Below, in pieces: positions 7,419 to 23,573 of a stretch of DNA of 64,000 bases. Position 1 is the stretch's first letter; the number at the start of each line of letters is the position of its first letter. A program made the translations under genes and the position numbers. The DNA is taken from positions 2,080,001 through 2,144,000 of the forward strand of contig OY762964.1 in assembly GCA_963667035.1 (NCBI GenBank), written 5' to 3'. This DNA comes from Candidatus Cloacimonadales bacterium (GTDB lineage Bacteria > Cloacimonadota > Cloacimonadia > Cloacimonadales > JAFGVF01). The notes under the pieces were generated by a model. The model was given only the letters and a program-made list of their open reading frames with translations, searched no databases and was not told where the DNA came from.

Positions 7419-9218
7419 CTATTTAAGTAATATAACTTTTTGAGTAGAGATCTTATCGCCATTCGACAGCTTACAGAAATATACTCCACTAGCTACATTC
7501 TCAGGTTTCCATTCATAGCTATGTTTACCTGCAATTACATTCCCTGCAAGCAATGTCTCAACTAACTCACCTTTGATATTATATATTTTAAGTGTTACAT
7601 AGGAGCTGTTTGTTAAGCTATAAGATATTGTTGTTTCCGGATTGAAAGGGTTTGGATAAACAGAATCAATAGATAAAGTTGGAACATTCATAACAGTATT
7701 GTCTGAATTACCAACACTCTAGTATGTGAATGACTGTTCTTCTGCGAATGTAGAACGAGCAAAGGAATTATCAATAGATTGGCAACTCCAATAGTAAGTT
7801 TCATTCTCATCAAATACTGAGCTTTTGATAAGATAGAAGCAATTAGAGTTGATTCTACCAAATACAGGTCTCAATGCTCTACCATCCGGTAACGCCATTG
7901 GGGAAACAATATCACAACCGCCCGGAGTAGAACCTATCCTAACTTCATAAGTCAAACTAATATCAGGTTGCTCTATATCTGTTCCCATATCCCATTCAAA
8001 CTTAAAATATTCTCCTTCTTCGCTGATACTTAGATTAGTTGGAGGAGTTGGAACGTTATTAGTTGGAGTGTCTTCATTTCTGTATACTCTTGTAATCGGT
8101 ATATTATTACTACTTGTCCCTGTTAGTACAATATCTAAATCTGAGTCATTGTCATAATCACACCATTCTAATGAACAATTAGATAATTGATATAGTGAAA
8201 TTGTTGTTTCATCAAGTAAGCTACTATCATTACTAAATAATGATGTAAAGGTTTCATAAGGACTATTCCAATATTGGTCACCTGAAATTGCACAATCAAG
8301 GTCAGAATCATTATCAAAGTCTCCCCACTCACAGTCTCCGAAGAAAGCTCCGGGCAAGTCCATACTCAAATCGACAAAAGTTCCAGTTAAGTTCATATAA
8401 ACAGTAGATATACTTTGTGCATCCGGTTTTAAACCTGTTAGTAGAATATCCTGATAACCATCATTGTTGAAATCTCCATGACATAATGATGAATATCTAA
8501 CTCCATTAAGTACATTATCGATAGGATTGAAACCATTCCCGGTATTCTCATAAATAATGGCTCTAAAATTTGTTGATGAATCTAAGCCTGTAACCACTAT
8601 ATCAATCAAAGAATCATTGTTATAATCAAATACTAGAATTGAACCTGTTTGTAACTGTTCAAAGTCTATACTTGATTGAATGAAACCATTATCTGTATTC
8701 TCGTACAAGACAGTATTATAATACTCATCATTTGTATATCCCATAACTAACAAATCCGAATCTCCATCGTTATCATAATCAATAAAATGACTTTCTCCTA
8801 CAAAATCAATTATTGGAGTATCCAAAACATTAATTGACCCTTTTTCATTAATATACAATTGGGATATATATACATCTGTTGGATCTATCTGGGATAGACC
8901 ATTTATAAATAGGTCTAAATCACCATCATTATCGTAATCGAACCAAGTATGTTTACCTAATATTGACCCACTAATATTAGAAACTATACTTGTTAACTCA
9001 GCATTAGAGTTCTGATAAAGACCTGTTTCGATTGTTGTGGATTCTTGATTTCGTGCACCAGAAACACATAAATCTATAAAACCATCATTATCAAAATCAA
9101 CCCAAGAGACACAACCCTTCTTATAGTTCTCAATATTGGAACTAGTATTTGTTAATGTTATTCCAAAGCAAATTGAAGATAAAAGCACTATCGTGATTAT
9201 TGAGATAATCTTACTCAT
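7419..9218 (-). CDS. Secreted FG-GAP/VCBS-repeat beta-propeller protein with T9SS type A C-terminal domain, interrupted by one in-frame TAG (7719-7721)
   Basis: Signal peptide from ATG 9218 after GGAGG; repeated D[FY]DNDGDLD motifs; FN3-like segment; ORFs 7719-9233 and 7419-7691 share a frame: FTY*SVGNSDNTVMNVPTLSIDSVYPNPFNP...SGVYFCKL..KVILLK. Confidence 0.8.
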
Positions 9219-22221: not shown

Positions 22222-22299
22222 TGGTCGGGATGACAGGATTCGAACCTGCGACCACTTGAACCCCATTCAAGTGCGCTACCCGGACTGCGCTACATCCCG
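22222..22299 (-). tRNA. tRNA-Pro (GGG)
   Basis: Minus strand CGGGATGTAGCGCAGTCCGGGTAGCGCACTTGAAT-GGG-GTTCAAGTGGTCGCAGGTTCGAATCCTGTCATCCCGACCA; cloverleaf, T-loop, encoded CCA. Confidence 0.97.
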
Positions 22300-22507
22300 A
22301 CTCACAAATCTACTTTTTATCTGTTGATTTTGTTGGCAAGTAAAAAGTATCAAACTACCAATATCTGCATTGCAAAACACTAATTACACCGTTATCATAT
22401 TGAATTACCATCATTATTCATCTGTCTACACTAACAATTATCCTTGCTATAAATTAGGATTTACACATTTTCCGATTATAATAACAAGAAAGAGTATTGG
22501 AGGATAG

Positions 22508-23524
22508 ATGAAGAAGATAAATTTGATATTAATCCTATTTTCCCTAATAGGAATTCTATCAGCTCAAAATATTCTACTTTGGGATAACGACAACTATTCC
22601 AGCTTCGTTCAGCCCGGTGATGAATACTATACCGGTACGGAAGTTGCTGTTGGTCGCTCATTGCTAAGAAACGGGCTGACATTTGAAGAAACAACCATAT
22701 TACCCGGAGATTTATCGCAGTATGACGCTGTCTTTGTGACATTAGGCGTTTACTGCCTTTCCTGAGGAGTCACTCCTCCGGGATCAATAGGCTCGGTCGA
22801 GCTAAACATTTTAGTTAATTACTTAAACCAAGGTGGTGCACTTTATATTGAAGGTGTTGATTTTGTTAATGATTACTCATCAACACCATTAATTGATTTC
22901 TTTGGTGTTACAATAGGTAGTACAGGATTAGGCGGAGGAATAGAACAACTCACAGGTTTAGACGGTTCTATTGCCGAAGGTCTTGAATATCAATATCTAA
23001 CCGGAGAGTATCCTGATTATTTAGTAGATGAGATTGTTTTGAACGGAGCAACAGCCGTGTTAAACTCAAATGATGGTAATGTAAGAGTAACTTCTTATCA
23101 ATCAGGAAGCTATCGCACTATTGCTTCTGCTATAGCTATGGGTGGTATTTATGATAGCGAAGAACATACTAGAGCGGATTTGATGGAAAGATACCTAAGG
23201 TTTTTAATACCTGCTATTTCCAATAATGAAGATACTCAGCCAATAGCTAAAGTTGAACTGCATTCTGCTTACCCTAATCCGTTTAATCCTACAACAAATA
23301 TTAGCTTCACATTACCTGAAAATCAAGCTTACTCTTTAAGTATCTATGATATAAAAGGGAGACTTGTTAAAGTCCTTTCAGAAGGATTTGGTAACAAAGG
23401 AATGAACCGTTTTGTCTGGAACGGCACTAACAATGAGAATCAAGCAGTTGGTAGCGGTGTATATCTTTGCAGACTTAATACAAAAGGTAGTTCTAAAACC
23501 ATTAAATTAACAATGATTAAATAA
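22508..23524 (+). CDS. Putative secreted selenoprotein (338 aa, Sec at codon 86, CxxU) with T9SS type A C-terminal domain
   Basis: ORFs 22508-22765 and 23039-23524 are in the same frame and the gap is stop-free: YDAVFVTLGVYCLS-TGA-GVTPPGSIGSVELNILVNYLNQGGALYIEG...; signal peptide; YPNPFNP...GSGVYLCRL..KLTMIK. Confidence 0.8.
22788..22804 (+). promoter_or_regulatory. Candidate bacterial SECIS hairpin
   Basis: TAGGCTC-GGTC-GAGCTA; apical loop GGUC starts 29 nt after the TGA; locally GC-rich synonymous codons. Confidence 0.55.
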
Positions 23525-23540
23525 CTTTTAAGCTATATAC

Positions 23541-23573
23541 AAAAGAAGGGTAGTTGATTTCAACTACCCTTTT
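23541..23573. terminator. Bidirectional terminator
   Basis: AAAAG-AAGGGTAGTTGA-TT-TCAACTACCCTT-TT between convergent genes. Confidence 0.8.

Follow-up and report, generated by a model that had tools for sequence, protein, structure and literature searches.

An uncatalogued, selenocysteine-dominant protein family on type IX secretion cargo, with a predicted surface Cys/Sec pair

Does a TGA codon that separates two open reading frames (ORFs) in a Candidatus Cloacimonadales genome end a protein, or is it read as selenocysteine (Sec, U)? The question is raised by a gene at positions 22508–23524 of a 64,000-nucleotide stretch of DNA (assembly GCA_963667035.1, contig OY762964.1, positions 2,080,001 to 2,144,000), referred to here as the window. 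An initial annotation, made from the letters alone, had proposed that this locus encodes a secreted selenoprotein with a Cys-x-x-Sec pair in a domain unlike thioredoxin, followed by a sorting tail of the type IX secretion system (T9SS). Our analysis identifies a real, uncatalogued and Sec-dominant selenoprotein family on T9SS cargo. For the window itself we consider it highly probable, on comparative sequence evidence, that there is one gene for a T9SS-exported selenoprotein, with a predicted Cys/Sec surface redox centre as the preferred activity.

Results and discussion

One reading frame with a single TGA

The locus is a single 338-codon frame on the forward strand, and its only in-frame TGA is codon 86 (22763–22765), in the context V-Y-C-L-S-U-G-V-T-P-P-G. 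This frame is common to an 85-aa ORF at 22508–22765 and a 161-aa ORF at 23039–23524, the latter with a TTG start, and the 91 codons lying between TGA and TTG (22766–23038) are free of stops. The initial annotation, which had joined the two ORFs into one frame broken solely by this TGA, was correct in coordinates and description, and its 338-aa read-through product was re-derived from the sequence.

Comparative evidence for recoding of the TGA

Homologues were expected to keep either TGA or Cys at this position, and they do: among 70 homologous genes whose DNA was examined, the codon in the column is TGA in 62 and TGC in 8, with both flanks conserved. TGG, the codon for Trp, a residue that the initial annotation had counted among the marks of an ordinary nonsense mutation, was looked for in the same 70 DNA sequences and found in none. 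Within the order, 61 genomes were searched with stops read through, and a strong match was defined by E ≤ 1e-30. The 31 strong matches comprised 22 with exactly one TGA and nine with no TGA; none of the 24 weaker matches contained one. The TGA form was present in 20 genomes from four families of the order. In 20 excised and aligned loci, TGA occupied the same column in 14 and TGC in 6, and the family motif G-x-[Y/W/F]-C-x-x-[U/C]-G-x-T-P-P was accompanied by conservation on both sides.

A degenerate DNA pattern with TGH at the site, allowing TGA, TGC or TGT, was run on one-genome-per-species contigs; it is biased to ...C-x-x-[U/C]-G-x-T-P-P-G and returned at least 120 stretches, 80 of which were examined. 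Fifty of these match the family hidden Markov model (48 with TGA and 2 with TGC), and the remaining 30 matched by chance, in GC-rich genomes. The TGA-form sequences amount to 55 distinct ones from several phyla, and among the genes sampled the Sec form far outnumbers the Cys form; full-length homologues with CxxC in the protein databases number only six (P0003, P0004, P0005, P0008, P0010 and P0011).

The position of the conserved residues bears on the same question. In an 18-sequence family alignment, C83, U/C86, T89, P90, P91, G109, Y113, E115, G150 and a few hydrophobic positions are invariant, and T89 through G150 of the named residues sit between the TGA and the next start codon. Since this stretch would be left untranslated if the TGA were a stop, the arrangement is beyond chance. 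Assembly error, which the initial annotation had allowed for, has left no sign at the site: contigs of four runs do not differ there, which is weak support as all come from one study, possibly the assembly's own source. On these data the TGA very probably encodes selenocysteine.

Selenocysteine machinery and genetic code

Sec machinery, whose absence would have spoken against the proposal, is present in the host genome. Genes for selA (526 bits), selB (328 bits), selD (379 bits) and tRNA-Sec (57.7 bits) were all detected above curated cut-offs, and selD itself has one in-frame TGA. A selA match was found in all 20 genomes with the TGA form, the match in one of them (G035) being partial and at a contig end, and the TGA form occurs in none of the 17 genomes lacking a selA match. 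Six genomes with Cys forms only also have selA. The genetic code is otherwise standard: prfB, the gene for release factor 2 (RF2), is present (508.7 bits), TGA closes 152 of 1310 long open frames in the genome, and the long genes neighbouring the family gene contain no in-frame TGA. The family gene maps to C1:2,102,508, a long way from selA/selB at 1.86 Mb, selD at 2.88 Mb and tRNA-Sec at 1.78 Mb; a T9SS gene beside the host tRNA-Sec is unrelated to the family and has no TGA.

A hairpin downstream of the TGA

Published constraints for a bacterial selenocysteine insertion sequence (bSECIS) comprise a stem of 4–16 bp, a loop of 3–9 nt with G in its first two positions, 16–37 nt from UGA to loop and a minimum free energy (MFE) of at most −7.5 kcal/mol (PMC13188914, accessible in part). 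All four are satisfied, in our own implementation, by 40 of the 55 distinct Sec sequences, the window included. Most family members have a stem of 5–7 bp about 20 nt downstream of the UGA, with loops CGUGA, GUG, GUC, AGUU and others. In 43 of the 55 sequences the loop of a hairpin with 5 bp or more begins at +23 to +27; these hairpins draw on 36 different stem pairs, and the stem survives amino-acid-changing substitutions in the P-G-x-V-[G/N/S]-x segment. Synonymous resampling gave 15.2 expected hairpins (standard deviation 3.3, maximum 24 in 300 runs) against the 43 observed, and a mean MFE of −6.13 (standard deviation 0.37) against −9.47 observed, in a pooled test that overstates independence because the sequences are related.

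The genus of the window does not have the +24 register; a hairpin with 29-nt spacing stands in its place (Table 1), and it is identical or extended in three genus-mates, reaching 7 bp in two. A second window hairpin, at 22764–22778, is uninformative alone because it is built largely of Gly and Pro codons. Tests on single sequences gave fold z-scores from −1.82 to +0.73 and synonymous resampling that was not significant (91–845 of 1000), so that the pooled, position-specific test is the only informative one. Rfam searches matched neither a SECIS nor anything else of relevance, whether at the gathering threshold or at E ≤ 10 on 22700–22900.

Six Cys-form loci that keep the hairpin (L046, L048, L049, L050, L054 and L060) lie in genomes that have selA, and in these forms the hairpin may be a fossil SECIS left after a recent Sec-to-Cys change.

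Export signals, fold and the Cys-x-x-Sec loop

The T9SS sorting tail that had been read from the sequence was recovered by both models for such tails, PF18962 (36.3 bits, cut-off 27) and TIGR04183 (41.4 bits, cut-off 23). The genome encodes PorU (615.5 bits) and SprA (472.7 bits), the two components of the T9SS machinery searched, and has 125 further T9SS-tail matches.

The initial annotation had placed the Cys-x-x-Sec pair in a ThuA-like module resembling class I glutamine amidotransferases (GATases), and the predicted structure agrees. An AlphaFold2 model built from 36 sequences (mean predicted local distance difference test score, 88) matched class I GATase-like structures in Foldseek (E 4e-9 to 1e-6). 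VIA superposed model residues ~16–247 on such structures with Z 13.6–17.8 and a root-mean-square deviation (rmsd) of ~3 Å over 170–200 residues. The matches include 3rht, 4pxy, 1t0b, STM1381, STM3548, domains of GH42 and related glycosidases, the N-terminal domain of IFT52 and true GATase subunits. No thioredoxin-type Pfam or NCBIfam model matched, and all listed fold matches are GATase-like. At the sequence level the domain is matched by no Pfam or NCBIfam model, the NCBIfam matches above E 0.1 falling on the tail only, and a profile search against PDB sequences returned nothing meaningful (E 0.09 and 3.1).

In the model, the Cys-x-x-Sec-G-x-T-P-P loop comes after the central strand, which ends in the invariant G80, and DSSP assigns residues 84–86 to a short helical turn. 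Conservation of E115 and D174 extends to the wider superfamily. The 18-sequence alignment contains no invariant His and hence no Cys-His-Glu catalytic triad, for which reason the protein is classed as GATase-like in fold only.

Distribution of the family and its fragmentation in databases

An exhaustive HMMER search of 1.84 billion representative proteins returned 648 matches at E ≤ 1e-3; a word-index protein search found one homologue only. Among the 151 listed proteins with the family domain, 60 start within 20 residues of the point just past the Sec column, 4 end at that column and 86 span it. Such a pattern is what genes cut at the TGA leave behind, in keeping with the suspicion that annotation pipelines routinely split the family. 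With the family stored in databases largely as fragments, the selenoproteome sizes and surface proteomes of these organisms are undercounted. Proteins that span the column belong mostly to a wider Cys-less superfamily, carried by large T9SS proteins that also have S8 subtilase, malectin or PKD domains. In this superfamily the domain is often present in two copies per protein beside such modules, and Asn-His is often conserved where the subfamily has Cys-x-x-Sec (P0023, P0025, P0032, P0041, P0060 and others), in a loop whose alignment is approximate.

The 50 loci recovered by the DNA pattern are labelled Cloacimonadota-type (22), Bacteroidales (16), Lentimicrobiaceae (3), Zixibacteria (2, a tandem pair), Armatimonadota (2), Ignavibacteria (1), Chlorobiota (1), Clostridia (1) and unclassified (2), labels that can be wrong for metagenome-assembled genomes. 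The Zixibacteria-labelled pair (L133 and L134) consists of two Sec-containing paralogues in tandem, ~2.5 kb apart on one contig. Architectures vary, from a bare domain with tail, as in the window, to proteins that also carry Ig-like, NIDO-like or CARDB modules; in some proteins the domain is internal. The T9SS tail was present in all five Bacteroidales-type members tested.

Genomic context

In 10 of the 50 loci, all of Bacteroidales type (L063, L071, L075, L085, L125, L127, L129, L136, L137 and L139), a tRNA-SeC gene lies on the same strand 0.8–1 kb downstream of the motif. In all five genomes tested, selA follows this tRNA gene after 44–557 nt, as calculated from coordinates with the same contig assumed. 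The Bacteroidales-type branch carries a compact unit of family gene, selC and selA, which offers a testable lead on why these bacteria retain the Sec trait.

The window gene stands alone, with a tRNA-Pro(GGG) gene and a Wzz/Wzy pair pointing away from it on one side and GH38 and GH20 genes converging on it from the other. Directly upstream of the family gene, one genus has an ArsP-type permease gene and a low-molecular-weight phosphatase/ArsC-type gene (G004, L183 6321–7942), and ORFs of similar sizes lie upstream in L186 and L190 (G008 and G009). One genome among the 11 loci compared has a DsbD-like gene 2.3 kb downstream of the family gene. Coordinates of the locus are collected in Table 1.

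Table 1. Features of the family gene and its immediate surroundings, in window coordinates
Feature	Position	Strand	Basis
tRNA-Pro(GGG), divergent upstream neighbour	22222..22299	-	Same tRNA beside genus-type homologues L082 and L095
Shine-Dalgarno-like GGAGGA	22499..22504	+	3 nt before ATG, seen in sequence
Whole probable selenoprotein gene, 338 codons + TAA stop, one Sec-UGA	22508..23524	+	Homologues conserved over full length
Predicted signal peptide, aa 1-19 (MKK, hydrophobic core, LSA; cleavage probably before Q20)	22508..22564	+	n-h-c pattern by eye; model helix 2-16
Class I glutamine-amidotransferase-like / ThuA-like alpha/beta domain, aa 20-236	22565..23215	+	AlphaFold2 model, Foldseek, VIA
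Cys83 codon TGC, first residue of the C-x-x-U pair	22754..22756	+	Invariant: 18/18 aligned sequences, 50/50 family loci
TGA very probably read as selenocysteine U86	22763..22765	+	Column TGA/TGC in homologues; Sec machinery in genome
6-bp hairpin GAGGAG/CUCCUC, taking in the last two UGA bases	22764..22778	+	Mostly Gly (GGN) and Pro (CCN) codons
G-V-T-P-P-G loop after Sec	22766..22783	+	T89, P90, P91 invariant (18-sequence alignment)
Candidate SECIS hairpin GGCUC-GGUC-GAGCU	22790..22803	+	5 bp, GGUC loop, UGA-to-loop 29 nt; within published bSECIS constraints, region MFE -12.7
T9SS type A C-terminal sorting domain, aa 255-334	23270..23509	+	PF18962, TIGR04183; model beta-sandwich 264-336
11-bp hairpin between family gene and convergent GH38 gene	23546..23571	.	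Terminator-like on - strand; + strand T-run short

Two other T9SS-tail regions were observed. At window 7425–7733 (−) a T9SS-tail-like match contains one in-frame TAG and has an open frame of only 99 codons, possibly a broken cargo gene. Just before the window (G000:C1 ~2075467–2077906, −), an 812-codon frame leading into a T9SS tail is broken by a TGA (...IYNIR-TGA-QKV...); placed at the usual Gly position of the tail, this TGA is more suggestive of a nonsense change or an error than of Sec.

Proposed mechanism and competing explanations

Under the reading proposed here, the ribosome would meet UGA at codon 86 in a genome with tRNA-Sec, SelA, SelB and SelD, the hairpin would recruit SelB with Sec-tRNA(Sec), and selenocysteine would be inserted. 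The 338-aa product would cross the inner membrane through the Sec translocon by means of its predicted signal peptide, and its C-terminal tail would then take it through the T9SS across the outer membrane, to be released or anchored at the cell surface. Its working part is presumably the Cys83-x-x-Sec86-Gly-x-Thr-Pro-Pro loop, inserted after the central β-strand, roughly at the nucleophile site of the fold. As C83 and U/C86 are both invariant, a pair acting together in a dithiol-type centre fits better than a lone nucleophile, and the spacing of the two invariant chalcogen residues, three apart within a helical turn, suggests either a reversible selenenylsulfide or a bidentate soft-ligand site. 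We only infer an activity, be it redox or metal binding. Our tentative preference is for a surface redox centre in which the pair would cycle between thiol/selenol and selenenylsulfide on an extracellular substrate.

Several observations weigh against this reading. The window hairpin is short (5 bp, −5.4 kcal/mol), and its 50-nt fold alone is not significant (z −1.56, 10 of 200 shuffles). Fifteen of the 55 Sec sequences, mostly of Bacteroidales type with no early loop G, miss the consensus constraints, and the hairpin is also kept in all five distinct Cys-form sequences, so it is not exclusive to Sec forms. A fixed-register 7-bp helix is 62% paired without significant covariation (its score was reached by 60 of 500 shuffles); a +1 slide scored higher (0.394), because lineages are shifted by one base in hairpin register. 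When 14 Sec sequences were folded with RNAalifold, no helix was predicted there, only a 3-bp helix of Gly/Pro codons. In the 11 loci compared, conservation of neighbours stops at the genus, and no reductant or partner gene accompanies the family, which leaves a surface redox cycle without a known electron source. Lastly, among full-length database proteins there is one C-x-x-W form, and W stands exactly at the column in P0007 and beside the Cys there in P0002, both seen as protein only.

These W residues speak for a rival reading in which an altered genetic code or a suppressor tRNA lets the TGA encode Trp or Gly rather than Sec. However, gene prediction under table 4 writes W wherever TGA occurs, and a metagenome scan with P0007 returned T9SS-tail matches alone and no DNA for its W codon. 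The alternates in the column are Cys codons, with no TGG, and the presence of RF2, the closing of long frames by TGA and the TGA-free neighbouring genes all speak for a standard code, making this the least probable of the explanations weighed here. An ordinary stop, whether in a pseudogene, by nonsense mutation or by assembly error, with the downstream frame a decaying remnant or a separate gene, is how gene callers treat the TGA, and the 155-aa database fragment P0009 is identical to the C-terminal part of the window protein. Yet the recurrence of the same TGA across phyla with protein conserved on both sides, its replacement by Cys in some genes, the agreement of contigs and the invariant residues between TGA and next start codon make an ordinary stop very improbable, and the comparative sequence data already contradict it.

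The remaining alternatives accept the same selenoprotein and differ in what the pair would do. In the main rival to the redox reading, which we consider unlikely though worth entertaining, it might chelate a soft metal or metalloid (such as Hg, Cu or As) or selenium, for surface capture, detoxification or uptake. Both ligand residues are invariant and lie in a flexible loop, arsenic-type genes stand just upstream in one genus, the Bacteroidales-type gene directly precedes tRNA-SeC with selA next, and the accessible part of the 2026 selenoprotein catalogue has exported or metal-related CxxU entries such as BtuF, a TonB receptor of the FCYXU type and a mercuric transport protein (PMC13188914). 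However, the arsenic link is limited to that genus, the selC–selA linkage can mean joint inheritance of the Sec trait and a client gene, the window gene is distant from its own Sec genes, and no transporter is conserved beside the gene in the 11 loci. A bolder and improbable extension makes the family a main client of the Sec machinery in some anaerobes, where it would capture selenium, or a related chalcogen or metalloid, at the surface or handle its redox state; if true, a secreted selenoprotein would feed or protect the cell's own selenium economy, in prokaryotes for which the part of PMC13188914 available reports no known specific high-affinity selenium uptake system.

More improbable still is that Sec or Cys83 serves as the catalytic nucleophile of a hydrolase or transferase, as in GATases and DJ-1/PfpI enzymes. 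The fold does match GATase subunits of the HisH, Pdx2 and PabA type (Z 13.6–14.9), the loop follows the strand that ends in G80, and E115 and D174 are conserved beyond the subfamily. Against this, the missing His precludes the triad, paired invariant chalcogen residues three apart are foreign to GATases and DJ-1/PfpI enzymes, and the wider superfamily, which has no Cys, lacks the inserted loop altogether.

Novelty and comparison with known systems

The prediction of a new family held: the Sec-bearing domain has no listed model in NCBIfam release 20.0 or in Pfam, and the family is absent from the 119 prokaryotic selenoprotein families and subfamilies of the 2026 list, as far as its accessible Table 1 extends (PMC13188914). 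In the open full-text literature, main texts only, nothing relevant joined selenoprotein and type IX secretion in the passages available, and Cloacimon together with selenocysteine led to tRNA-Sec only. The family is frequent among lineages of anaerobic digesters and sediments (Cloacimonadota, Bacteroidales-type, Ignavibacteria and Zixibacteria) and sets a Cys-x-x-Sec pair on a non-thioredoxin scaffold, with a predicted signal peptide and a T9SS tail that should direct the protein to the cell surface.

Most selenoproteins described have a thioredoxin-like fold, according to the accessible part of PMC13188914. The bacterial CxxU selenoproteins listed there (for example SelW-like, AhpD-like and GrdA, in Table 1 of that review) resemble the window protein in having an in-frame UGA in Cys-x-x-Sec, Cys homologues, a hairpin 16–37 nt downstream and dependence on selA/B/C/D. 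In contrast to them, the window protein has a GATase1-like rather than a thioredoxin, AhpD or Rdx domain, carries a predicted signal peptide and a T9SS tail, and is matched by none of their Pfam or NCBIfam models.

An Omp28-related selenoprotein (NF045500; 'hypothetical protein GOS_C' in the part of PMC13188914 available) is exported, as is predicted for the window protein, but its own UxxC lies right after the signal peptide in a different domain, with no sequence match to the N-terminal domain of the window protein. Two distant NF045500 relatives with T9SS tails occur in the same genome (L271 and L272; G000:C1:1142257–1144125, +, and G000:C1:726758–729688, −). Both have a TGA right after the signal peptide, in the UxxC contexts W-U-G-Y-C-P and T-U-G-F-C-P, and are candidate selenoproteins; they match NF045500 weakly (37 bits against a cut-off of 200), and their relatives show exactly one TGA in 28 of 68 match rows.

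A cytoplasmic GATase selenoprotein with GxUxG, listed in the deep-Sep paper (PMC12013277, accessible in part), shares the class I GATase-type domain but is a different protein, with no NCBIfam match to that of the window. We read its Sec as standing at the catalytic-nucleophile position, the available text giving the motif alone; the window protein has Cys-x-x-Sec in an inserted loop and is predicted to be exported. The GATase1-like and ThuA-like structures 3rht, 4pxy, 1t0b, 3soz (STM1381) and 2gk3 (STM3548) and the GH42 beta-galactosidase domain have the same fold (Z 14.5–17.8, rmsd ~3 Å over 177–203 residues) at 11–17% identity, and no entry title among them names a selenoprotein. The GATase-fold module of giant T9SS surface proteins is homologous (HMMER E 1e-10 to 1e-18), uses the same scaffold and is also found on T9SS cargo, but neither Cys83 nor Sec86 is present in it, and its loop, commonly ...G-I-Y-[P/S]-x-N-H..., is shorter. 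Set beside these systems, the decoding of the family is ordinary and exported selenoproteins as such are already known; its fold, its location and its genomic ties are new.

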